Positions 6,101 through 19,723 of a stretch of 64,000 nt of DNA are shown here, one piece after another. The first letter of the stretch is position 1. Each line of letters starts with the position of its first letter. Source of the DNA: a phage; the sequence record PZ534534.1; one strand, given 5' to 3'. The position numbers and the translations under genes were made by a program. The notes under the pieces are model-generated. The model was not told the origin of the DNA. It ran no database searches and worked only from the letters and a program-made list of their open reading frames with translations.

Positions 6101-6787
6101 ATGGCAGAGATTAAGTCGGATGTTAACCACATCCACACTCTGCCAGATTTTGTTCAGGGAGGTCTTGACTACCTGCCTGGAGATTTTCTGGCTGAGAAGG
6201 TTAATTTAGTCACATTCTTAACCGTATACCTTAAAAGGTTGGAGGATGTTGATAAGATGCTGGTAGGTTTGGCTGAAGGAAGATTGCTTAACAATGCCAG
6301 CGGAAGATACCTTGACGAAGTTGGTAATCAACTTGGTATTCTTAGGAATGGACTTTCAGATGCTGATTTTCGTGCCACACTAATTATTCAGCAGGCCGCA
6401 GCATCAAGGGGCGGGACTCGCGAAGATGTCATCTCCACCTTGCGACAATTGTTCGGAAGAGACAATTTCGATACGTGGAAAGGAGACAACTTCAGGTTTG
6501 ACATAAATATTAGAAAAACTTGCTTTGACATATTGCAGTCTATCGATCAGATCTTAGATATGCTACCATTACCTTGTCATTTGCGTCTTACAGAATCGCA
6601 AGGGCAAGCTTTTGGTTTTGAAGGGGACTCTACAGCTCTTGGCTTCGGATCAGTGTGGGAAGAAAACCAATTCGGAGTTGGTGGGCTGGCTACTTTGCTG
6701 TATGTTCCTGACGTAAGACCTGATTGGGACACCACAACCATTTATTGTGAAAGTATTACAGTAAACGCAACTAGACAGGAGGGTTAA
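6101..6787 (+). CDS. tail protein (possible P2 gpI-like baseplate component)
   Basis: 228 aa ORF directly following baseplate-J-like gene; call by synteny only. Confidence 0.3.
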   Translation: MAEIKSDVNHIHTLPDFVQGGLDYLPGDFLAEKVNLVTFLTVYLKRLEDVDKMLVGLAEGRLLNNASGRYLDEVGNQLGILRNGLSDADFRATLIIQQAAASRGGTREDVISTLRQLFGRDNFDTWKGDNFRFDINIRKTCFDILQSIDQILDMLPLPCHLRLTESQGQAFGFEGDSTALGFGSVWEENQFGVGGLATLLYVPDVRPDWDTTTIYCESITVNATRQEG

Positions 6788-8859
6788 TGGCAACAGCTAT
6801 TTTTAAACCTTACCGTGATTACTCTACAATGGCTGCACGGTTTCATTACCGCACAGTTCAGGATACTGCCGTTCCTGGTAGGGATTATAATCATGTTGAG
6901 GGTGATGTAACTATCCCAATTGGGGCAACCAGTATTGAGATCCCAGTGGAAATTGTTGACAAATTACCCAACAGGTTGCCAAGAAGCTTCTTTATGGAGT
7001 TTTCATCAAAATCTCAAGGGGTGATGATTGGAACACAAAGGGCGAAATGTACAATAGTTTCAGATGAGAATCTTGACAGGATATCTTGGGATACTGTTGA
7101 GGAGAGAATGTTTCACCCAAGGTATTGGGTTACAACTACTCAGCAGACTGAAAGTACCTGTATTGTTGCAGATAACAACTGTTGTATTAACCGTTTAGTG
7201 TCAAGAACATATGGAGGTATGGCTGGGTGCATTTGGGAAACAGTTGACAAGTATGACCATTTCGGTATTGGGTTTGATGATCACTATGAGATGAGAAACA
7301 CCAAGCTTTGGTTCAGAATGTCAATAACCAATGCCAGCAACTTCTCCACCCCTGAAAAGATGATTATGACTGTAGACCTTGTTGATGGCACAATCATCTA
7401 TGTTCCTTTAGCTCAATATGCTGTCAGCATCTCAGAGGATAAGAATGTTGCAGAGATTCATATTGATTTCGAGGACTGCGTCGGGATGGATCAGAACAAC
7501 AACATGATGGGTGTTGATCCTCGACAGGTGAGAAGGATTTTAATACCGCTTATGCCTAAAGACTGGGTAAGTAATAGCACAGACCCGAGAACGGAAAATG
7601 TAGAGTGTGAGTTGCGCCTAGATCTGCTCCAGCCAGACACAGGCTGGAAAATGATGCAACTTAACAATATTCAGGTTAAAGAGCACGACGTTGGGATCTG
7701 CACCGCATATGACGATATGTGGAACGTATCTCCTTTAAGGGTGTTGAACAATATCAAGCGTCTGGGCTATACCGGAACCATAAACCATTATGTTGGTATG
7801 AGTCATTATTATGACTACACATGGTCAGGAACCCAATGGTCTATAAACAGAACAGGGGCGCTAAACGCTGCAGCTTATAAATGGCATGATGATTTTATGT
7901 ACAATGCCAAACGACATAACTTCGACGTTATGCAATCTGTAAGTTTTGAGCTTTTCAGCGATGCCTGCCCGTTGGAATGGACCCAAAGAGACTGGAACGA
8001 TAACTACGCTAAAACAGGGTATACACCCTGTAGCTACCTCCTGTCTCCAACCATTGAAGAGGGTATGAATTTCCTTACTGCAGTATTTAAGAATTTTGCA
8101 TCAGCCGCTATGAGAAACAACCTGCCAGTGATTATGCAGGTTGGTGAACCGTGGTGGTGGTACAATACCGATACTCGTAGACCTTGTATTTATGATTACC
8201 CTACAAAGCAGGCGTTTTATGATGAGACAGGTGAGTATGCATTAGATATTGGGACTATTGACGATCCTAAAACTGGCGGTGTTTACGACAAGTATGTAGC
8301 ATTTTGTCGTGGTAAGCTTGGCGCTCGTATTGCGGCCATTTCAAAGGCAATAAAGGCACACGCTGCATCAGCTCAGATGACAGCTCTGCTGTTTTTCCCA
8401 ACCATTATGGAAACAGAGCTTACGCAAAAGCTGAACCTTGCTGACCAATATAAAAAAGAAGCAGGTGCTCTTGATTTCTTCTGCACCGAGTGCTACGATT
8501 GGGTGATGCAGGGAGGTATTGAAAAGGCAAAAGAGTCTGTAAACATACCTATCGTTAAGTTAGGTTGGCAACCGTCTGAAATACAATACCTTGCAGGGTT
8601 CGTTCCTAGTAAAGAGCTTGCTCCGGTATATGGCTACGACCCAACCAGGAATTACCAAGAATTTTTATGGAGATGTATCTGCGGAAACATGGCAACCATA
8701 GAGTATAGATACCCTGAGGTAAAACAGTATGTGTGGGCATACCCGCAAGTAATGTCTGACAGCATCACTGTTACAGCCAGAGATTCTACCGTGCTTCATA
8801 TGGGGCAGGTTGCTCTGAAAGGGTATGTAGAAGATGTTGTCCCTCCAGACTTCTCATAA
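6787..8859 (+). CDS. tail-associated protein with N-terminal Calx-beta-like domain
   Basis: 690 aa; N-term GRDYNHVEGDVTIPIGATSIEIPVEIVD fits Calx-beta pattern; start overlaps upstream stop. Confidence 0.4.
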   Translation: MATAIFKPYRDYSTMAARFHYRTVQDTAVPGRDYNHVEGDVTIPIGATSIEIPVEIVDKLPNRLPRSFFMEFSSKSQGVMIGTQRAKCTIVSDENLDRISWDTVEERMFHPRYWVTTTQQTESTCIVADNNCCINRLVSRTYGGMAGCIWETVDKYDHFGIGFDDHYEMRNTKLWFRMSITNASNFSTPEKMIMTVDLVDGTIIYVPLAQYAVSISEDKNVAEIHIDFEDCVGMDQNNNMMGVDPRQVRRILIPLMPKDWVSNSTDPRTENVECELRLDLLQPDTGWKMMQLNNIQVKEHDVGICTAYDDMWNVSPLRVLNNIKRLGYTGTINHYVGMSHYYDYTWSGTQWSINRTGALNAAAYKWHDDFMYNAKRHNFDVMQSVSFELFSDACPLEWTQRDWNDNYAKTGYTPCSYLLSPTIEEGMNFLTAVFKNFASAAMRNNLPVIMQVGEPWWWYNTDTRRPCIYDYPTKQAFYDETGEYALDIGTIDDPKTGGVYDKYVAFCRGKLGARIAAISKAIKAHAASAQMTALLFFPTIMETELTQKLNLADQYKKEAGALDFFCTECYDWVMQGGIEKAKESVNIPIVKLGWQPSEIQYLAGFVPSKELAPVYGYDPTRNYQEFLWRCICGNMATIEYRYPEVKQYVWAYPQVMSDSITVTARDSTVLHMGQVALKGYVEDVVPPDFS

Positions 8860-8871
8860 TCAGGAGATAAA

Positions 8872-9912
8872 ATGTCAAAACCTAGTTTTCCATTAGAGAT
8901 TTGGGCAGAGGAGGATCAGGTTCTGCCTAACACCCACAGACAGAACAGGCTACGCCCGATTGATGATTTGTGGAGAAAAGGTTGGGATCTTGGTCAAAAG
9001 CCATCCTGTGAAGAACTTAACTATATTTTCAATATGCTCGGAACTTGGGCAAAATACATTGCTGACGAGCAGATCCCCGCTCAAGAAGGCCGTTATCTGG
9101 TACGTGATAATAACTTGAGCGATCTTTTGAACATCCCTGTTGCCCGTAGAAACCTTGGGATTATCACTAAGGAAGAGGCAGACGCCAGGTATGTAAAAGT
9201 TACAGGTGATACAATGACAGGCCCCTTGGGGTTGCAACGTATCAACTTTAAAGCTGCCGAGACAGATAAGGCTTGGATAGAGACAACTATTGGCCCAGAT
9301 AAGACAACTCTCGACTTTGGGTTAAGTGATAATACCGGGTCGTTTGATGATGGTGGTACATCTACAGTAGATGCGTTTCGTTGGAGATTCCAGCCAACTC
9401 AGCCGGATATTAATCCAGAGTTCACTTTGATGTACCTTAACGCGATCACGGCTAATCGTGCGCTGTTGAAAGTGGTAGGCAATGTTGAAGTTGTCGATAA
9501 CATGAGGTGCAATAACCTTACTATCAGCAATACAGCAACATTCACCAACTGTAATGTGGCTAGTCAGTTGACGGCTGGGTCAGTATATGTTAATGGTGGT
9601 GCAAGTTGTGACAGTATGGTTGTAAGAAGCCAGCACTGTGTTGTCGGTAACAGAAATGTGGTGCGCTCCGTGAATGGAGTGACGGCTAACGGTAACGGTG
9701 ATGTAACGATCACTATCCCGCAGACAGGTGTGCAAGACATCAGAATCGGTGCAAGACTTGTGGACGGCGTTTCTGAATCTCCAATCCGCAACGGCTACGT
9801 TGTCACAGGCTGGCATTTCGGTGACAAAAAAGAGATGCGTGGTTCAACCTACTGGGCAGGACCTTTACAAAAACTTGTAAATGGTCAATGGATCACTGTT
9901 AATTATGCATAG
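8872..9912 (+). CDS. tail fiber protein (paralog A)
   Basis: 346 aa; N-term FPLEIWAEEDQVL and C-term QKLVNGQWITVNYA shared with 10924-11970 paralog. Confidence 0.5.
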   Translation: MSKPSFPLEIWAEEDQVLPNTHRQNRLRPIDDLWRKGWDLGQKPSCEELNYIFNMLGTWAKYIADEQIPAQEGRYLVRDNNLSDLLNIPVARRNLGIITKEEADARYVKVTGDTMTGPLGLQRINFKAAETDKAWIETTIGPDKTTLDFGLSDNTGSFDDGGTSTVDAFRWRFQPTQPDINPEFTLMYLNAITANRALLKVVGNVEVVDNMRCNNLTISNTATFTNCNVASQLTAGSVYVNGGASCDSMVVRSQHCVVGNRNVVRSVNGVTANGNGDVTITIPQTGVQDIRIGARLVDGVSESPIRNGYVVTGWHFGDKKEMRGSTYWAGPLQKLVNGQWITVNYA

Positions 9913-9926
9913 ATCGGAGGACTAGC

Positions 9927-10511
9927 ATGAAAATACTTCAAGAGTTTAAACTTTACCAACCGGGATCTGGCGAATACTACTCCAACAAGGAAACCAAGGA
10001 GCTGACCCCTCAAGAGGTCGAGGATTACACCGCATACACTGGGTATTTTTTACGTAATGATGATGGTGATTGGTATGTGCAGTCACGAACATTACGACAA
10101 GAAAATCCAGGGTGTATCTTCCTACTTGTTGACGAGAAGGGAATTCTTAAGACATCTACAGAAGAACCTGATGCCTTATGGCCTGCTCCAGGTCTTCGTG
10201 TGGTTATCGCCAAAAAAGAAGAGGTACCAGAAAACATTATGCTTCACCACGACGCTTTGCGTTTAGTTGGTGATGAATTTGTCACAGACAATGAATTCTT
10301 TGTTCAACAGGCAGAGGGTGTCATAGAGACAGAACTTGCTTGGGCTACTGCTAGAATTGGTGCCTATCAAGACATGATTGACCTTGAATATGATCTTACT
10401 GATGACCAGAAACGTAACATCAGAGATTTGAAAATGTACAGGGTAAAACTTCTTGAAATAGATACATCTAAAGCCCCTGACATTTTCTTCCCGGAGCGAC
10501 CTACCCTCTAA
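9927..10511 (+). CDS. hypothetical protein (possible tail fiber assembly factor)
   Basis: 194 aa ORF with GGAGGA RBS between the two tail fiber paralogs. Confidence 0.3.
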   Translation: MKILQEFKLYQPGSGEYYSNKETKELTPQEVEDYTAYTGYFLRNDDGDWYVQSRTLRQENPGCIFLLVDEKGILKTSTEEPDALWPAPGLRVVIAKKEEVPENIMLHHDALRLVGDEFVTDNEFFVQQAEGVIETELAWATARIGAYQDMIDLEYDLTDDQKRNIRDLKMYRVKLLEIDTSKAPDIFFPERPTL

Positions 10512-10923: not shown

Positions 10924-11970
10924 GTGATGACTAAACCAGTTATCCCTCTTGATATTTGGGCCAATCAGGATGTTGTGCTTGAAAATACGGGAGAGTTGAA
11001 TAAATCTCAACCAAAAAAAGAAGAGAGATTGAAAGGTTGGGATATGACACAAAGAATGGCATGTGAAGTTGTTAACTTTGAACTTCACATGCTTTCTGCG
11101 TGGTTGAAGCATTTAACAGAAGATGTTGTCCCAGGATGGGATAATAGATTCTTAAGGGTCACTAATAATCTAGCAGACGTTCCAGACAAAGCTGCTGCAC
11201 GTCAAGTTCTCAATGTATACTCACCTGAAGAAATGGACGATCTATATGTTGACAAGTCTGGAGACATAATGACTCAGACTCAAACTTTAGGTCTTCAAAG
11301 AATCGAGTTTGCATCTGCGTCAACAGACAGTGCGGCAATATATACCACCATAACTCCAGACAAGACGACGATGGATTTCTGGATTATGGACAACATCGGT
11401 GGTGCTGACGGCACAGACCTTGATGATCCTTCTCACCAAATAGATGGGTTCCGTTGGAGATTTCAACCTTCTGGTGGGCAGCCTGTGTTTTCAGCTATGA
11501 AGCTCAATGCTATAACTGCCAACCGTGCAAGACTGGCTATCCAAGGAAATCTTGAATGCAACGATGCAAAAAGTTCCTCTGCAAATGCCAATGCGGTCAC
11601 GATACCAAGAGCCACTGTTAATGGACAACAATCCTGCGGAAGCGCTCAAATAGGTGGAAGAGTTGATTGTAACGATGAAACCGTCAGGGGCCAATATGCA
11701 ACAGTTGGTGGAAGAAACGTGGTCCGCAGGGTAAATGGTAACGGCGCAGACAGTAGCGGTAACCTTACTATCCCTATGCCTAGCAGAGGGGTTGATGATG
11801 TAAGGATAGCAAACCGTTTTAAAACCACCTACAGAGAGTCAAGAGTCTACCCTGGACATGTGATGTGCTCTGGTAACTACGCTTATAAACACCCTTATCA
11901 AGGTGATTACTGGACAGGTGCTATCCAAAAACTTGTAAATGGTCAATGGATCACTATATCTTATGCTTAA
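10924..11970 (+). CDS. tail fiber protein (paralog B)
   Basis: 348 aa; paralog of 8872-9912; last 30 coding nt before the final codons identical to paralog A. Confidence 0.5.
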   Translation: MMTKPVIPLDIWANQDVVLENTGELNKSQPKKEERLKGWDMTQRMACEVVNFELHMLSAWLKHLTEDVVPGWDNRFLRVTNNLADVPDKAAARQVLNVYSPEEMDDLYVDKSGDIMTQTQTLGLQRIEFASASTDSAAIYTTITPDKTTMDFWIMDNIGGADGTDLDDPSHQIDGFRWRFQPSGGQPVFSAMKLNAITANRARLAIQGNLECNDAKSSSANANAVTIPRATVNGQQSCGSAQIGGRVDCNDETVRGQYATVGGRNVVRRVNGNGADSSGNLTIPMPSRGVDDVRIANRFKTTYRESRVYPGHVMCSGNYAYKHPYQGDYWTGAIQKLVNGQWITISYA

Positions 11971-12257: not shown

Positions 12258-14003
12258 ATGGCGCAAGACATGACAAGCTTTGAGCAGGCGGTAGATCAAG
12301 TAATTGTTGATTCTGAACGTTTGCACCTGATTGTCAACGGTAACGCTGTGGATGAAGTTGTCGTAGAGGATGGGACCACCATCCCTACGGTACGAAAAGC
12401 CATGCTTGACACCCTTTATTTTAAAACGCCACCGATCCCTTGGGCGTATGGTGCATCCACAACAGTTTTTAACCAGCTGTACGAGTTTAAAGGGGACACA
12501 GGCCCTCAGTGGTGGTACGCTCCCGCAGCATCAAAATCTAACCCGGTTAGAATGCCAGCAGATCCTTCACAATCTCCAAACTGGAGATTATATACCGATT
12601 CTGCAGTAATGGCAAAATACTACGCAAAACTTAACAGTCCGAGGTTCGAAGGTGACCCGCGAGTACCTACGCCTCCAATGGACGACAAATCCGAGTCTAT
12701 AGCAAACACAGAGTTTGTTGTTGACTATGTGGATAGCATATTTGAAGCCATGGAGGGAATGAAAGTTACTGTAGGATCTTTGGTGGTAAAAGGTCTTACA
12801 GAACTTGCTAACACTATAGTTGGTGGCACACTCACCTTACATGGGCCTGTTAATGGAGCAGATTCTACTGCACGCTTCAGGAACCTAATCCTCACGGCAA
12901 ATACTTCTACACTTACTTTTGCGTGGAGTGATCCTAAGCATGCAGACTGGAGAAGCACAGAGCTGCAACCTCATGAAGTGTCCACCCACAGGGTTATAGC
13001 TGACACTATAACTTCTGGGAAACCAGTGGCTAATAATAACGATGTGCATTTTGATGGTCTAGGTAATAACTTTTTTGACTACGTGTACATTCGTGGTAAT
13101 GCCATGAAGGCAGCAACCGAACCGACATTGCAGGTAGATGGAACCACCAGGGTTAAGAACCTTGAGGTGACAGGCACTGTTACAGGGATAACCTACTCTG
13201 TCGATGGCACCATGATTTACCCTAGCTATATTGAAAGCACGGGGGACGCATTAATAAATGGTGATTTAGAAGTTGGCGGATCTGTAGTTATTCGAGGTAC
13301 AGCCTCTATCCAAAACATAGCTCTGAATACCCTAAGAGTCAATGAGCGTGCAACTTTTGAAGGGGAAGGGCTTACAGCCAACAAAGGTGTAATTACCGAG
13401 CTGACAACCACTACTTTAACTGCAACAACTGCAAACTCTGAAAACTGCAACGTTACCAGAAACTTGCAGGTAAATGGAGATGTTAGTTTAAACGCAGCAG
13501 GGACGGGCACCACCTACCTTCACAACCTTGAAATATCCGGCACAGTGACTGGGTGGCTGCCAGACTTCTCTAATGTCAACTTTGTTTGTAATGGCATTAA
13601 CTCCAGTGGCAAGATAACCACCTCTCAAGAAATTGAGGCGGGTAAAACCATTACTGCCCCTACTTTCCACGCAGGAAAGGTAGATTTTGATTTAGAGGAG
13701 GTTGACGCGTCCAGTGGGACATGGACACCTAACGGGCAGGCCAGTATGTATGTTGTCCACGCGAAAGGGGATTTTACAATAGGACAATGGCCTGGTACAT
13801 CAGCGGAAGATAAACCTTATCCATTCACTGCGGTTATCTATGTCATTCAGGATGCTGTAGGTCACAACGTGACTTTGCACGATAAGTATGCTATCCTGTC
13901 GGCAACGCCTGTTATTAATAACAAGGCTAATAGTGTTACCTTGCTGCAATTAACATATTGTGGTGTTGGTGATATCGTAGACGTAGTAATTGCACAACGT
14001 TAA
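12258..14003 (+). CDS. tail fiber / tailspike-like protein
   Basis: 581 aa; short G/T/V-rich repeats (GTVTGI, GTLTLHGPV) typical of fibrous or beta-helical tail proteins. Confidence 0.45.
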   Translation: MAQDMTSFEQAVDQVIVDSERLHLIVNGNAVDEVVVEDGTTIPTVRKAMLDTLYFKTPPIPWAYGASTTVFNQLYEFKGDTGPQWWYAPAASKSNPVRMPADPSQSPNWRLYTDSAVMAKYYAKLNSPRFEGDPRVPTPPMDDKSESIANTEFVVDYVDSIFEAMEGMKVTVGSLVVKGLTELANTIVGGTLTLHGPVNGADSTARFRNLILTANTSTLTFAWSDPKHADWRSTELQPHEVSTHRVIADTITSGKPVANNNDVHFDGLGNNFFDYVYIRGNAMKAATEPTLQVDGTTRVKNLEVTGTVTGITYSVDGTMIYPSYIESTGDALINGDLEVGGSVVIRGTASIQNIALNTLRVNERATFEGEGLTANKGVITELTTTTLTATTANSENCNVTRNLQVNGDVSLNAAGTGTTYLHNLEISGTVTGWLPDFSNVNFVCNGINSSGKITTSQEIEAGKTITAPTFHAGKVDFDLEEVDASSGTWTPNGQASMYVVHAKGDFTIGQWPGTSAEDKPYPFTAVIYVIQDAVGHNVTLHDKYAILSATPVINNKANSVTLLQLTYCGVGDIVDVVIAQR

Positions 14004-14012
14004 TATATATCT

Positions 14013-14040
14013 AACCGCTCCTGACGGGGCGGTTTTCTTA
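14013..14040 (+). terminator. rho-independent terminator
   Basis: AACCGC/GCGGTT stem-loop followed by TTTCTTATC. Confidence 0.45.
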
Positions 14041-14053
14041 TCTGGAGAACACA

Positions 14054-17000
14054 ATGCTTCCAATCCCTTTGCTAAAACTTGGTCGTCATTTCCTCGATAA
14101 GAGGGGTGGAATTAAGGAACTTGCTGTTCTGTCATACCCAATAGACAACAGTGATGGTACAAGCAACACAGTATCCTATGTAAATAGCTTAGCTATACTT
14201 TTTGATGATGGTCAGCTTAATATTACTGGCTATAATAGGTTCGGAGAGTGTCGGACTGGAGATCTTGATACAATAAACTATCCTAATGAGGCAGCTTGGA
14301 ACGTAGACCATGTTTGGAGAGCTGACCGTGCATTTGTAATCCGCACATTCGATAATAAATTTTTCTATATTGGTTGCACAGCTGGTCTTATCGGATCGGA
14401 GGCAGCAGGTGGAAACGATGTTTGTGTCAGAGAGTGGACACCTTTGCCGGAACAGATCGTAACAGGGTTGCATTTGGACACCCATCCTGAGAGACTTGTT
14501 GAAGTAATGGGTGGCGTAAACAATACCGTGTGGGTAATTGCTGCACCAGAGGCTGATGGTATGCTTCACCTGTACGGCTCTGGCAATAATACTTACGGCT
14601 CTCTTCATGTTGACAAAAGTCAACACGCTACTCCAGTTAAGATCGGTGAAACATCTGAAAGTCCAGAGACAGGTCCTTGGAAAAATCCAAGAATTAATTG
14701 TGAAGTTCATGACAACTCGGTTATTTTTGGTGGTCCTAACGGATTCTGGATTGCAGGTTACGACTTTCTGAGAAATAACAGTAGAAACGACCTTGTTTGG
14801 CCTCCTGTGCAGATTACTCGTAACGATTTGAGGGGCATTCCTGCAGATGAGGAGTGGAAAGGGTTTATGTGTGGTCCTAACGGGGCAGTAATTGCTACAC
14901 AGAGGATGCATAGACCCGATGACCAGCAGCTTGTTAACGTATTTTATGGTCAAAACATTTGGGGAGATGATACATGGCGGGAACTGAATATCACCTACAC
15001 CCATGAGGTAATGATGGCTCGTGGGTACGGCACAAGTGGCATTTTCTTCAATAATGGCACTAAGCAGTATCGTGGGTTCTCTCGCAACTTATGTAATGAT
15101 ATTGGTGCACAATCTGCAAACAATAGTCCTAGGGCCGATTTTATCCACTATCAAGCTCTTGCTACAGCTAAATATGTTGAGCAACGCCTGCCAGTCAGCT
15201 GGACAGAGAGTGTTTATTTCCAAGGCATCCACAGAGAAGGTTTCTTAGGTACCTTTACTGTTGTTAATGGTAAACTTTGGTGGTCAGGTATCCCAAGGGG
15301 AAGTTTTACAGGATCTAATAACCTCTTTGGCGGCAGACTTAACAGCCAAGGGTTCACAGAGATTCCGGAGAATTGGTATAAAAATGTCCCGGTAGACAGT
15401 TGGGGTGTTGAGGATATTTTCGACGTTAACGGTGTTAGCAGCGTTAGCAATATTTACATTGGTGACACGGTCAAGATGAAATTGAAGCCTCAGCCAGAGG
15501 GGGCTACGTTCATTATTGACAAGATTGAACTGGTAAATGCTGCAGGCACGGTTGTTACAGATGCAAATTACCAATTCTCCACCAACTGGAACCACGGAGG
15601 GGCCAATGAAGTTGTTGTCACCCAGTATAACAGAAATGTTAACAGACGTGGCCTGTACTCTGTAAAAATAACCTATCATGACAAGCATGGCACAGGCAGA
15701 ACCCATACGACAAGGACTTTGAACTGGAACACCATAGTTCCTGCGTACCCGTCTGATGGTAAATGGCATACTGTCGGTAGAAACAAACAGTTCCATGTTA
15801 ATGATACTGTATACTTTGGGCTGAATGGGACCCAGCCTGCAGTAGAAGGGGATACATCGTATATGGTCAGACTCCACAGAATGGATGCTGGATCAGTCAC
15901 TTATGATGTGACCCAAGAGATCTACGATCAAAGACGCGCCACGTATGACAATATTGTGAAAACACAAGCCTTGTGGGAGTTCAATCCTAATGGCAAGGGT
16001 GGTAAAATGTTGCAGGTTAATGAGCAGAACGGAACGTCGTTGACTGTTCACGAACACCCAGACCCTTGGCCTGATCCTGGAAAACCTCACCCAGGAGCTC
16101 GTACACTGAAAATTGTCAGCCATGATGCAGGGTATTTCGGAATACGCTGGGAAGCTACAGTAAGATATGTCGACGGGACAACAAACAACATAGGGATTAC
16201 ACTTGGCGGCACTAGTGAAGATAACTCGCTGAAAATTGCCTACACGCCCAGAGGTATCTCTATTGATAATATGGATGTTGTTCGCAATGGTTACGGCGAT
16301 GTGAATGTCAAAGTTACTCTTGGCGAACATCTTGGTGGGGAAAGGATCATCATGTATGCCTTTGATCATGATCCACGCACCAATGGAACTTATGCAAATC
16401 AGGCATGGAGTTACCTGATAAATGCACCTGAGCCGAATACTAAAGAGTTCTACTATGGTATGAAGCGAGATGTGTGCAAGAAAACAGGAACACATGACTG
16501 GATTGCTATCTGCGTTAAAGATGAGCGCACAGCTTGGGATGAGCCTGTTAACAGATGGTTCATAGGTATTCCTACCAGAAGTGATAAGTATGTCGCAGAA
16601 TATATTGTATGCATGGGCGGTACCAACCTAAACATGTGTTGGAACGAAGATGTAAACAAATACTCTGATTATGACTATATGAGGGATTACTCTTGTAATT
16701 TGTGGTTTAACCAAACTACAGGTTACCCTCCAAGACAGGCGAGAGTAAACCCTGCAATCTTCACAGACACGCAGGTTTTCTTGACAAAACAGGCCAACGA
16801 GGTCCAGACCTTCAAGAACAAATACGACCCTAATAAGTGGTTCTATAACTGCTATGGGGCATTTTTCTGGGGACCTGGAGAATTACCTGGTGGTGGCTCT
16901 TGTTTTGAGGCTGCAACTTACGCCAGTGACAGATTTATGGGCCAGGTCAAGAAATACAAGATAATTCCAGGGCCTGAAACTTTAGGCAACGCTGTCGACC

Positions 17001-19681
17001 CCTATATCATCATGAGTGATCTAAGATCGAACATGGATGGAACATCCATATCTATGCAAGTTCCGGTAACAAACGGATACAAGCGTGTTGTGATGATCAT
17101 TAAGTGCGATCTGATAGGTAAGCAAGTTCTTGCAGAGAACGGAACTTCCACCCACCTATTTGAGACTGCTCTGCACTATCAGTTTGCTGATTCACCTTTT
17201 GCAGGGGATAAGAGAATATCTGACACAGACGCTGTGCGATGCAAGAAATTTATGCTAGGTGGTGGGTGGTGGTGGTATGAATTTGACTTAACAGACAAAT
17301 TCACCGACACGTCTAAAGTAGTGACGGGGCTTCGTCTAGACCTTGGCGAAAACATGCACAAAAGTGTTTGTGATGGCACCTACGGTGACCCAACAATCTA
17401 CTTAAAGTATGTCTCTTTTGAGCACCCAGAGGATGTTGTTTATGGTCCAAAACTGAGACTGTTTGGCAATTGGATTGCTAAAGACAGGGTAGGTATGGGC
17501 AAGAAGGTAAGAGGCTTCTTAATAGATGCCGGTACAGAGGACATGCTAGTCAATGCAGTGTGGCCTGAATTACCTGGGACTCAGTGGAACAACTCAGCCA
17601 AATCTATAAACTGGTTCAATATCCACAGGGCTATGTGGACAACCAACTGTTACCTGTGGAAAGAGCTGAATGACGGCGCTTTCGGGTTCACAGGCGGCAG
17701 AAGAATGGCAATCATTTGCTGGACAACGTTGCAAAGATGTTATGACCATGACTACGAGATTGGAGGTAGGGCATGGAAAAATATTAGGGATAGAATCATA
17801 ACCAACTTTGCAGATCCTAACGGTGGTGGAGCGTATGGCTTCGACTGCAGCAGGCTCATCCATTTGAACGGATCCTCTGCCTACAAGAAAGAAGGTTACT
17901 CTGGGTCTATGATAGAATGGGGCCTGGTGAAAGATGCTCGCGTGCTGATGGGTCAACAACTTGCTGCTGCAATAGGTCCTAATGCAGTGCAATCTGTTAA
18001 ACCTGCGTGGTTTGATATCCCATTGTGGTCATCCGGTACACCAGGAACTGCTGCAATCAACCCTACCACGGGGGATCTGGAAATCTCTTGGGAGGACTTG
18101 AAGCAGGTTGGAGGCTGGGATAAAACAGGGTATCAGGTCCAGTGGTGGAGGGCTGATGGATCTTTAGCCGCTGATGAGTTTGTTAAGGACAATTTCTACA
18201 CCATGTCCTCTGCAAAAGCACAGGAATTGTTCGGTCAGGCAACTCCGTCAACGATCACCATGTCTATGTGCTGTAAAGACAACAGGACTGGAGCTTTGGG
18301 GCCAAGGGTTGCTAAAGTTTTCTCAGGTATTAAATGGAATCTACCTGTCCAAAGTATTTCATGGAAGCAAATAGGTGATAACAAGCTGCTGGTTACCCCT
18401 GCCTGTCAGTTCAACGCAACTCTTAACGTTGATCCTGCTGTTGCGGCAAACTCAGCTAAAGCTTCTGACTTCTCTGTGTCTAACACTGCTATGGCAGATG
18501 TGAGGAAGATTGACACGCTGAACGCCAGAATTACCTGTAAAAACACTTATGGCACATTCCAAATCATCAACAACTTCACAGATGCTGATTCTAAGGTAGT
18601 GAGGACAGCAAGCCAGACTCTGAGTTTAGGAACTCTGGCCTATGCGGCACTGATCACCGAACAGTCGGCAACACTCCAAGGAGGCGGTGTAGGCAAGTCC
18701 ATTGCAACACCTGTGTGGAAGCCAAATGAGTGGGTTGTGTTTGATTTGACTGTGGACTTCTCCAGCGATAATAACTGGACATGGGTAAGGAATTGTTTGT
18801 CACAGTTGATGGGCGGTCCAAGCTCCGTTAGTGATAGTCACGACTCTACTGACCCGAGTGTGTTCCAGGTAGGTAAAACTCACCCAGAGACTGGAGAAAC
18901 GTTGCCTGACAGGAAGTATGCGTTGGTTTGCATCTCTTACGGGAAGGCAGATGTCACATTCTCAGGGACACACACTTATAACGGAACTTACAACTTCTCA
19001 AGGAAGTATAGTCTCAAAGCAGGGAACATTATAGACGAGGTCGGTGTGCTGTATAATCCGGGCAACGGCATAGGGATTGTGGGCGGTAAACTGCAGATGC
19101 AGGAACCTTCTATCACCCCTTCCAACGTATCCGGGATTAGAAAGACTTGGGAAAGTAGTAATACCAACATTGCAACAGTGGATGCCACCACAGGGCTGGT
19201 AACATTTAAAGCTACTGGGAATGTCACCATAAAGTTTGTAGTTAGAGATGATGCAGGCCGCAAAACGTCTTCAACATCGTTTACTGTCAGACAGATGGCA
19301 CCTCAGTGGTTTATTTGGGAAGGAAATCCTCTTGACGGGGCTTACCCTAGACCTGCAGGAACGTCCAATATGAGGGTCTTTACCGGTCCGGTCATGAACA
19401 ATCCGACCACAACCACCAACCCTACATTTTTTGGTGCTTACATACCTGAAATTATTGGCCTACCAAGGAACCAGATACAACTGCTTTTCGGAGCAGGTGT
19501 TGATGGTCTAGCCACTTTTGGGTACAGTGACAACATTGATGCAGCCAGAAGCTCGGGTTGGATTGGATTTAAGTTTCAGTGGAACCCTGGTGGTAGAACA
19601 TTAGGTGTTGCAAGCATAGGTGTTATGCTACCTGGTAACCAGCAATACCATCTCGAAGCTTATACAAACTTCCCTAGTTAA
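14054..19681 (+). CDS. giant structural/adhesin-like protein with Big_2 domain
   Basis: 1875 aa; RCC1-like repeats near N-term; Big_2-like segment ATVDATTGLVTFKATGNVTI near C-term. Confidence 0.5.
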   Translation: MLPIPLLKLGRHFLDKRGGIKELAVLSYPIDNSDGTSNTVSYVNSLAILFDDGQLNITGYNRFGECRTGDLDTINYPNEAAWNVDHVWRADRAFVIRTFDNKFFYIGCTAGLIGSEAAGGNDVCVREWTPLPEQIVTGLHLDTHPERLVEVMGGVNNTVWVIAAPEADGMLHLYGSGNNTYGSLHVDKSQHATPVKIGETSESPETGPWKNPRINCEVHDNSVIFGGPNGFWIAGYDFLRNNSRNDLVWPPVQITRNDLRGIPADEEWKGFMCGPNGAVIATQRMHRPDDQQLVNVFYGQNIWGDDTWRELNITYTHEVMMARGYGTSGIFFNNGTKQYRGFSRNLCNDIGAQSANNSPRADFIHYQALATAKYVEQRLPVSWTESVYFQGIHREGFLGTFTVVNGKLWWSGIPRGSFTGSNNLFGGRLNSQGFTEIPENWYKNVPVDSWGVEDIFDVNGVSSVSNIYIGDTVKMKLKPQPEGATFIIDKIELVNAAGTVVTDANYQFSTNWNHGGANEVVVTQYNRNVNRRGLYSVKITYHDKHGTGRTHTTRTLNWNTIVPAYPSDGKWHTVGRNKQFHVNDTVYFGLNGTQPAVEGDTSYMVRLHRMDAGSVTYDVTQEIYDQRRATYDNIVKTQALWEFNPNGKGGKMLQVNEQNGTSLTVHEHPDPWPDPGKPHPGARTLKIVSHDAGYFGIRWEATVRYVDGTTNNIGITLGGTSEDNSLKIAYTPRGISIDNMDVVRNGYGDVNVKVTLGEHLGGERIIMYAFDHDPRTNGTYANQAWSYLINAPEPNTKEFYYGMKRDVCKKTGTHDWIAICVKDERTAWDEPVNRWFIGIPTRSDKYVAEYIVCMGGTNLNMCWNEDVNKYSDYDYMRDYSCNLWFNQTTGYPPRQARVNPAIFTDTQVFLTKQANEVQTFKNKYDPNKWFYNCYGAFFWGPGELPGGGSCFEAATYASDRFMGQVKKYKIIPGPETLGNAVDPYIIMSDLRSNMDGTSISMQVPVTNGYKRVVMIIKCDLIGKQVLAENGTSTHLFETALHYQFADSPFAGDKRISDTDAVRCKKFMLGGGWWWYEFDLTDKFTDTSKVVTGLRLDLGENMHKSVCDGTYGDPTIYLKYVSFEHPEDVVYGPKLRLFGNWIAKDRVGMGKKVRGFLIDAGTEDMLVNAVWPELPGTQWNNSAKSINWFNIHRAMWTTNCYLWKELNDGAFGFTGGRRMAIICWTTLQRCYDHDYEIGGRAWKNIRDRIITNFADPNGGGAYGFDCSRLIHLNGSSAYKKEGYSGSMIEWGLVKDARVLMGQQLAAAIGPNAVQSVKPAWFDIPLWSSGTPGTAAINPTTGDLEISWEDLKQVGGWDKTGYQVQWWRADGSLAADEFVKDNFYTMSSAKAQELFGQATPSTITMSMCCKDNRTGALGPRVAKVFSGIKWNLPVQSISWKQIGDNKLLVTPACQFNATLNVDPAVAANSAKASDFSVSNTAMADVRKIDTLNARITCKNTYGTFQIINNFTDADSKVVRTASQTLSLGTLAYAALITEQSATLQGGGVGKSIATPVWKPNEWVVFDLTVDFSSDNNWTWVRNCLSQLMGGPSSVSDSHDSTDPSVFQVGKTHPETGETLPDRKYALVCISYGKADVTFSGTHTYNGTYNFSRKYSLKAGNIIDEVGVLYNPGNGIGIVGGKLQMQEPSITPSNVSGIRKTWESSNTNIATVDATTGLVTFKATGNVTIKFVVRDDAGRKTSSTSFTVRQMAPQWFIWEGNPLDGAYPRPAGTSNMRVFTGPVMNNPTTTTNPTFFGAYIPEIIGLPRNQIQLLFGAGVDGLATFGYSDNIDAARSSGWIGFKFQWNPGGRTLGVASIGVMLPGNQQYHLEAYTNFPS

Positions 19682-19693
19682 CAGGAGGCAAAT

Positions 19694-19723
19694 AAAAAGG
19701 GGCCAGACGGCCCCTTTCTTTTT
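19694..19723. terminator. bidirectional rho-independent terminator between convergent genes
   Basis: AAAAA-GGGGCC-AGAC-GGCCCC-TTTCTTTTT: hairpin flanked by A-run and T-run. Confidence 0.6.

Follow-up and report, generated by a model that had tools for sequence, protein, structure and literature searches.

What does the largest protein of the tail fiber module contribute to the virion of Vequintavirus phages? These phages have a broad host range that makes them candidates for therapy and biocontrol, and the division of roles among their many fiber genes is unclear. The DNA analyzed here, a stretch of 64,000 nucleotides from sequence record PZ534534.1 (the window below), belongs to a Vequintavirus (rV5-like myovirus) genome and carries the gene for this protein, which we call gp27 after its ortholog in rV5. 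An earlier note, made from the sequence alone, had described the product as a structural protein with RCC1-like and Big_2-like segments and, considering its size and its position after the fiber genes, had suggested a large adhesin or decoration protein that bears modules for binding to surfaces and could be a determinant of host range.

Part of the answer is already on record, since the fiber/Ig-like annotation of the gp27 family, the presence of gp27 in virions and its dispensability on Escherichia coli K-12 have been reported and a 99.6%-identical annotated protein, from phage Mangalyan, is already deposited. The adhesin reading is not new either: BASEL annotates the orthologs bas50_0041 and bas54_0041 as 'lateral tail fiber protein with intimin domain'. 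What is added here is the gradient of conservation from the N- to the C-terminus, the existence of two alleles of the tip, natural amber and frameshift alleles, a conserved hairpin that precedes the gene and the absence of features typical of a trimer, as well as indirect support for the RCC1 assignment and the recognition of an orphan middle domain. These additions sharpen hypotheses; they will not surprise a specialist and leave current concepts unchanged.

The gp27 gene and its genomic setting

On the plus strand of the window, a single ORF without interruption runs from the ATG at 14054 to the stop codon at 19681 and encodes 1875 amino acids. It is preceded by a Shine-Dalgarno sequence (Table 1), and the N-terminus, MLPIPLLKL, is kept in all homologs including the phAPEC8 counterpart. 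In a windowed comparison of nine orthologs pN/pS lies between 0.03 and 0.19 over most of the gene; this purifying selection establishes, at the level of sequence, that the ORF is a real protein-coding gene. The antisense ORFs found within it (14189-15004, 15284-15877, 15893-16495 and 17594-17992) were dismissed as chance because they have no PHROG matches and their position is not kept in a 40%-identical homolog.

The DNA of the 5628-nt gene is 99.4% identical to that of DrSchubert (Bas50) and Mangalyan, and a megablast search matched 122 phage records. The protein falls into phrog_15684 ('unknown function'); the match scores 4431 bits and pairs residues 1-1874 with positions 1-1877 of a profile 1878 positions long. 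Its ortholog in rV5, ORF27/gp27 (ABI79098), has 1878 residues and 208 kDa; together with bas50_0041 and bas54_0041, the orthology of the latter having been confirmed, it forms a group of full-length orthologs with 89-99.6% amino acid identity that share genomic position and domain order with the window gene. The rV5 protein differs from the window protein in nothing substantive apart from the C-terminal allele. All 114 of the matching Vequintavirus records contain the gene. Homologs make up just 15 clusters among 5.8 billion proteins, and both homolog loci that were examined for context are syntenic and Vequintavirinae-like.

In rV5, DrSchubert, L003 (a 40%-identical relative) and phAPEC8, the gene is the final member of the tail fiber module and lies on the same strand as the rest of it. 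Upstream on that strand are genes for a gpJ-like central fiber, baseplate wedge proteins, a deacetylase/glycosidase fiber, two Mu-S-like short fibers with a chaperone and then a glycosidase fiber, and these upstream ORFs match PHROG tail families. The placement of an intact gene after the fiber genes, as the earlier note had it, is thus borne out. No paralogous domains shared between the 1875-aa protein and other ORFs of the window were found.

Both ends of the gene are marked by terminator-like hairpins. The upstream one, with a predicted dG of -16.7 kcal/mol and a z-score of -3.2, is placed between the stop codon of the gp28 ortholog and the ribosome-binding site of the gp27 ortholog. A hairpin of like form with another stem sequence is present at the same site in L003 and in phAPEC8, making three lineages in total, and the phAPEC8 record annotates a terminator at the matching upstream position. 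Judging from its form and conservation, the hairpin probably attenuates read-through into the gene, and the low copy number that would follow agrees with the low spectral count of gp27 in rV5 virions. Downstream, bidirectional terminators are annotated in the rV5 record at the position of the second hairpin, and the GC skew changes sign at the strand switch. There is no assembly chaperone gene downstream of gp27, the terminator being followed by genes on the opposite strand.

Table 1. Positions of the gp27 gene, its segments and nearby signals in the window
Feature	Position	Strand	Basis or remark
Intrinsic-terminator-like hairpin (9-bp GC-rich stem, tetraloop, U-rich tail)	14013..14034	+	Scan
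Shine-Dalgarno GGAG, ATG 6 nt downstream	14044..14047	+	Direct sequence reading
CDS, 1875 aa, ~208 kDa	14054..19681	+	Ortholog of rV5 gp27 / bas54_0041 / phrog_15684
aa 1-445, most conserved module	14054..15388	+	Sequence comparison; ~75% identity even to distant homologs
aa 446-840, several predicted beta-sandwich (Ig/FN3-like) domains	15389..16573	+	AF2; without Pfam match
aa 841-1329, orphan Cys/Trp-rich region	16574..18040	+	Seen only in Vequintavirus records
aa 1330-1740, about four predicted tandem Ig-like beta-sandwich domains, the last being Big_2	18041..19273	+	AF2, Foldseek, Pfam
aa 1741-1875, two-allele C-terminal domain	19274..19678	+	Highest pN/pS in the gene
T6 run (T5 in DrSchubert, Bas50)	19427..19432	+	-1 frameshift hits last ~84 codons
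Terminator hairpin closing the tail fiber module, at the coding-strand switch	19696..19717	+	Scan

Domain organization of the protein

The RCC1-like segment proposed in the earlier note could be supported only in part. Directly, the 1875-aa protein misses the Pfam thresholds for RCC1 families (PF25390, 20.2 bits against a cut-off of 150; RCC1_2, 13.7 against 22), while it matches the RCC1-like phrog_4219 with an E-value of 4e-7. The indirect support comes from gp086 of phAPEC8, to which the first 207 residues are homologous (39% identity, E 3e-27); past this point the two proteins still match colinearly, but more weakly. This protein passes the PF00415 threshold (24.0 bits against 21.7) and matches PF25390 over its residues 40-331 (E 6e-11). 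Because the homologous N-terminus of gp086 carries an RCC1 signature, residues ~25-445 of the window protein likely adopt an RCC1-like propeller. A comparison of the N-terminal thirds with each other by hhalign gave nothing significant at an alignment Neff of only 1.3, no internal repeats were detected in the 1875-aa protein by BLAST self-comparison, and the AF2 model of the N-terminal 445 residues, with pLDDT below 50, is unreliable. RCC1-like propellers in Vequintavirinae virions have a precedent, since phrog_4219 proteins are virion components, confirmed by mass spectrometry, in another genus of the subfamily (W70; PMC11370258). Residues 1-445 are thus a probable RCC1-like beta-propeller and a candidate virion-attachment module.

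The roughly 1200 residues outside the RCC1-like and Big_2 parts are specific to the family and consist of beta-sandwich/Ig-like strings and an orphan region rich in cysteine and tryptophan. The protein was modeled with AF2 as two overlapping segments from alignments of 8-9 sequences, and the models, with mean pLDDT of 47 and 52, are poor as a whole and usable locally. Within residues 446-840, which contain no Pfam family, beta strands are predicted at 450-560 and 740-840 with pLDDT of 60-80. Further on, residues 841-1440 contain 2.3% cysteine and 4.0% tryptophan; residues 969-1124 are predicted with confidence as one beta-sandwich, and a helical stretch at 1126-1329 has a low AF2 confidence that makes it unusable for a claim about the fold.

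For residues 841-1329, no relatives were found in Pfam, NCBIfam, the PDB or, outside the genus, in phage genomes. When 1.84 billion cluster representatives were searched exhaustively with a HMMER profile, out-of-family matches fell at Big_2 positions only, and two word-indexed homology searches likewise found no relatives past the family except Big_2-only matches; a word-indexed search with residues 1-460 gave fragments only. A profile comparison with the PDB matched the Big_2 domain of intimin only, apart from a marginal match to TraT (E 0.03) that we take as chance. Foldseek searches of the PDB and BFVD returned generic bead-string arrays of Ig, cadherin, FN3 and MG domains and fragments of the gp27 family only. 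About two thirds of the protein is without recognizable relatives, so that a solved structure would bring folds, or uses of domains, that are new.

Tandem Ig-like domains are predicted at residues ~1330-1755 with pLDDT of 65-90; a small domain at the C-terminus comes after them, and the string matches cadherin ectodomains, the Sap S-layer protein and phage Ig arrays in Foldseek. The Big_2-like segment is confirmed by Pfam: PF02368 covers residues 1682-1733 (nt 19097-19252) with 34.7 bits against a cut-off of 22.8, reaches 37.7 bits in a scan restricted to the C-terminal segment, and is the sole family above threshold in the whole protein. Matches to intimin in the PDB and NCBIfam are restricted to this domain of ~50 residues. 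The full-length intimin/invasin architecture (NF033627) was not recovered: the score of 21.4 bits is far from the cut-off of 1400, and only residues 1696-1734 match.

Over the C-terminal domain pN/pS takes the values 0.42, 0.18 and 0.29. The last 131 residues exist as exactly two alleles in the genus: identity to the window is at least 95% in 38 records and 60-64% in the other 76; this segment has no matches outside Vequintavirus. The allele of the window ends in '...TNFPS' and that of rV5 in '...ATFSR'. In the variants P0007 and P0014, 1711-1716 residues long, Big_2 and the terminal domain are cleanly absent. Identity to distant homologs falls along the chain, from ~75% at residues 1-460 through ~50% at 460-1440 to ~20% at 1440-1875. 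A proximal end that is conserved and a distal end that varies are what is usually seen in a binding protein anchored to the virion, and residues 1741-1875 are the candidate distal binding tip.

A close parallel outside the orthologous group is gp086 of phAPEC8, a 'tail protein' (phrog_11922, Phapecoctavirus). Its gene, too, is the last of the tail fiber module and has a hairpin upstream, and the protein shares with gp27 the N-terminal ~207 residues, the RCC1-like signature and the presence of Big_2 domains. In contrast to gp27, it has 891 residues, lacks the ~1200-residue middle part and ends in another C-terminus. The part that is missing from gp086 corresponds to the extra beta-sandwich domains and the Cys/Trp-rich region.

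Presence in virions, dispensability and natural disruption

Absence from purified virions would have spoken against the structural role proposed in the earlier note. In a MudPIT analysis of rV5 virions, locus 27 (1878 aa, 208,334 Da) was detected with 3 peptides and 9 spectra at 3.1% coverage (PMC3606486, Additional file 5, Table S5), and the protein is not highlighted in the text of that paper. The gp27 ortholog is thus present in virions, although the evidence is thin. A preprint on HIDEN-SEQ reports that bas54_0041 tolerates disruptive transposon insertions on K-12 (10.1101/2025.11.20.689424), which shows that phages can form virions and infect E. coli K-12 without an intact gene. According to the same preprint, differing fiber genes are conditionally essential on clinical isolates, and its text names none of them (10.1101/2025.11.20.689424).

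Natural alleles in which the gene is broken are found as well. Two phages isolated on MG1655 carry clean point mutations to amber: in magaca codon 617 has changed from TAT to TAG, in nomine codon 82 from TGG to TAG; no suppressor tRNA that could account for these alleles was found within the 64-kb window. In DrSchubert one T is missing from a homopolymer run near the end of the gene (Table 1), the gene of JES2013 is frameshifted near its 5' end, and many split or fragmentary ORFs of gp27 are present on genome-length contigs. Part of the split alleles, for example that at the DrSchubert homopolymer site, may be sequencing errors. The comparison with DrSchubert also reveals a sharp change in identity along the gene: over the first 3470 nt the two genes do not differ at all, whereas 33 substitutions lie in the 2150 nt that follow. 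A break of this kind indicates intragenic recombination, as judged from the alignment.

The gene is present in every matching record of the genus and under strong purifying selection (pN/pS around 0.05-0.1), yet natural knock-outs occur in phages isolated on K-12. Such a pattern befits an accessory function of importance in nature but not on K-12.

Possible readings of gp27

We lean, by no great measure, toward gp27 being an accessory, low-copy, tail-associated adhesin-like appendage of the Vequintavirus virion. The protein would be a long adhesin-like structure that belongs to the tail fiber apparatus. Its N-terminal ~445 residues, the probable RCC1-like beta-propeller, would dock to the virion or to the fiber network, and the predicted chain of beta-sandwich/Ig-like domains together with the orphan Cys/Trp-rich region would form an extended stalk. 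At the far end, Big_2 and the two-allele C-terminal domain would contact a host-surface structure that is either missing from K-12 or unneeded for its infection, and this contact may improve adsorption on natural hosts. The leaky terminator directly upstream probably holds expression low. We infer the tail location, orientation, oligomeric state and binding partner of gp27, as well as the effect of the hairpin.

The suggestion in the earlier note, a large surface-binding adhesin or decoration protein with a possible role in host range, gains from the position in the module, the Ig/Big_2 strings, the conservation gradient and the two-allele tip; the dispensability on K-12 weighs on the other side. 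Several observations speak against the appendage reading. A match to phrog_215 is filed under 'head and packaging', which would also allow a location on the head or neck, the AF2 model of the N-terminus has pLDDT below 50 and direct RCC1 scores are below threshold, and the virion evidence amounts to 3 peptides in one study. The three fibers resolved by cryo-EM near the baseplates of Bas49 and Bas54, none of which is named as this protein in the accessible text (PMC12143355), count against it too.

A more specific version, which we regard as tentative and less likely than not, is that gp27 is a non-trimeric, single-chain, bead-string 'giant adhesin' whose propeller docks it to the tail and whose orphan domain binds glycans or acts as an enzyme, the whole being lost repeatedly upon isolation on K-12. 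Such a protein, with its orphan domain of ~490 residues, would stand as a class of its own among myovirus appendages, and only natural gut hosts that bear O-antigen or are encapsulated would call for it.

It is also conceivable, although unlikely, that gp27 is a conventional homotrimeric lateral tail fiber, one of the three fiber sets on rV5/phi92-type baseplates. [quoted passage not shown] However, neither a trimerization or shaft motif (coiled coil, triple beta-helix or collagen-like) nor a C-terminal Peptidase_S74 or other fiber family was detected with Pfam and PHROGs, AF2 predicts discrete beta-sandwiches and not a coiled coil or beta-helix, and an opposite-strand gene follows the terminator where a chaperone gene might be expected. 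We down-weight the trimeric fiber for these reasons. Structural work points in the same direction. By cryo-EM of Bas49 and Bas54 only three fibers near the baseplate were resolved, of nine annotated fiber proteins (PMC12143355); in the accessible portion of that report, a gp27-type protein is not named among the fitted fibers, which belong to the structural classes TC1, TC8 and TC12 and whose descriptions are unlike gp27 (PMC12143355). The cryo-EM papers on phiTE and phi92 assign no counterpart of gp27, and although phi92 has three fiber sets, none of its listed tail fiber candidates is reported as such a counterpart in the 2026 structure paper.

Less probable still is a Hoc-like decoration of the capsid or neck, with Ig-like domains that bind mucus or environmental glycans and not a host receptor. 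Decoration proteins that phages can do without typically carry Big_2 or Ig-like domains, and the dispensability of gp27 in the laboratory, the head-and-packaging filing of phrog_215 ('structural protein with Ig domain') and a PDB profile match to 9kmh, a phage decoration protein with Big_2 (E 0.03), would be accounted for. The gene, however, ends the tail fiber module at a distance from the head genes, and the N-terminus of its product is common to an annotated tail protein of phAPEC8-like phages. In addition, the head of rV5 is already decorated by an abundant protein, gp61 (PMC3606486), and the low spectral count of gp27 argues against stoichiometric decoration of the capsid. A mainly enzymatic role, in which residues 841-1329 would be a tail-carried glycan depolymerase or modifying domain of the 'Swiss-army-knife' style, is the least probable of all: neighboring fiber proteins do carry glycosidase or deacetylase domains and many acidic, aromatic, His and Cys residues of this region are invariant across 40-58%-identical homologs, but it matches no Pfam, NCBIfam, PHROG-annotated or PDB family and is predicted by AF2 with low confidence.

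The accessory appendage that we favor has partial likenesses among known systems. The side tail fibers of lambda (Stf) and the L-shaped fibers of T5 (pb1) are appendages that speed adsorption via surface glycans or porins. They are trimeric, with known receptors and chaperones, and are unneeded on laboratory K-12; loss by frameshift has occurred in laboratory stocks such as lambda PaPa. By analogy, gp27, which is also dispensable and naturally disrupted, may be compared with them, unlike them in showing no trimer hallmarks. With the Big_2 adhesins of the intimin/invasin type and the Ig proteins of the T4 Hoc type gp27 shares Big_2 and a predicted Ig-like bead-string; in contrast to intimin, it has no beta-barrel, LysM or C-type lectin part.

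For applied work, gp27 is an obvious candidate for conditional effects on host range or adsorption on clinical strains. Because the gene is dispensable and often broken in stocks grown on K-12, production stocks may lose it silently.

Hairpin upstream of the gp27 ortholog and its disrupted alleles

The gene at 14054-19681, the rV5 gp27 ortholog, is the last one in the tail-fibre module, and a terminator-like hairpin lies directly 5' of its ribosome-binding site (Table). The form and position of this hairpin are kept in three divergent lineages, i.e., in the window, at L003 (the locus of a 40%-identical homolog) and at L005 (the phAPEC8 locus with the positional counterpart gp086), while the stem sequence is different in each. 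Because position and form are kept and the stem sequence is not, the hairpin suggests that expression of this last gene is regulated and attenuated.

Copies of the gp27 ortholog are broken in several deposited Vequintavirus genomes (loci L012, L013, L014 and L001), and many fragment ORFs of the gp27 family are found in genome-length contigs. The point nonsense mutations, those of magaca and nomine, are both amber, and both of these phages were isolated on MG1655.

Features of the tail-fibre module, upstream hairpins and disrupted alleles of the gp27 ortholog
Feature	Location	Strand	Remark
rV5 gp34 ortholog	window 6787-8859	+	
Short tail fibre gene, phrog_4465	window 8872-9912	+	
Tail-fibre assembly chaperone gene, phrog_136	window 9927-10511		between the two short tail fibre genes
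Short tail fibre gene, phrog_4465	window 10924-11970	+	
gp28 ortholog	window 12258-14003	+	adjoins gene 14054-19681 on its upstream side
Terminator-like hairpin	window 14013-14034		directly 5' of the RBS of gene 14054-19681
Matching hairpin	L003 9972-9993		
Matching hairpin	L005 8962-8981		
magaca, gp27 ortholog	codon 617		TAT to TAG (amber)
nomine, gp27 ortholog	codon 82		TGG to TAG (amber)
DrSchubert, gp27 ortholog	T6 run, window 19427-19432		-1 frameshift
JES2013, gp27 ortholog	5' part		frameshift

Neighbouring genes of the tail-fibre module

The primary receptor binder on K-12 is probably the gp34 ortholog and not the product of gene 14054-19681. The gp34 protein was described in the BASEL paper as an N4-like deacetylase fibre with ECA or the "N4 glycan receptor" as its presumed target (PMC8594841), and its homologs in related loci contain PF23844 (NCTSP_N) and PF23845 (TIM-barrel_NCTSP). 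The two phrog_4465 genes that flank the chaperone gene are paralogs; their rV5 orthologs, gp30 and gp33, are paralogs with 42% identity (PMC3606486). Homologs of gp28 belong to the Pfam families Phage_phiTE_241_N and Phage_phiTE_241_C, whose names come from phage phiTE. The cryo-EM structure of phiTE has been published and a structural template for the gp28 ortholog may therefore exist, but for gene 14054-19681 no template was found.

RCC1-like virion proteins and Pfam families

In the Vequintavirinae phage W70, three RCC1-like proteins of ~40 kDa (phrog_4219) are abundant in the virion according to mass spectrometry, and the authors suggest a link with the encapsidation of DNA on the basis of comparable proteins in virions of other phages (PMC11370258). 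The location of these proteins in the virion would bear on what the N-terminal module of gp27, probably an RCC1-like beta-propeller, might resemble or dock to. PF26918.1 is present in the precomputed Pfam list of P0001, the cluster representative 93% identical to the protein under study, and was not among the matches in scans against the local Pfam copy; possibly, this family was curated only recently and covers part of the gp27-type protein.

Oddities in deposited records

About 15 unannotated "Campylobacter phage" records (MG0656xx; host Campylobacter jejuni) hold an E. coli Vequintavirus gp27-type gene with 93-98% identity and look like contaminant or mislabelled assemblies. In the record of phage Mangalyan (OR449013.1), the gp27 ortholog (99.4% identity) is located at the identical numbers 14054-19681 on the opposite strand; the agreement in numbers may be due to chance in how the records are laid out.
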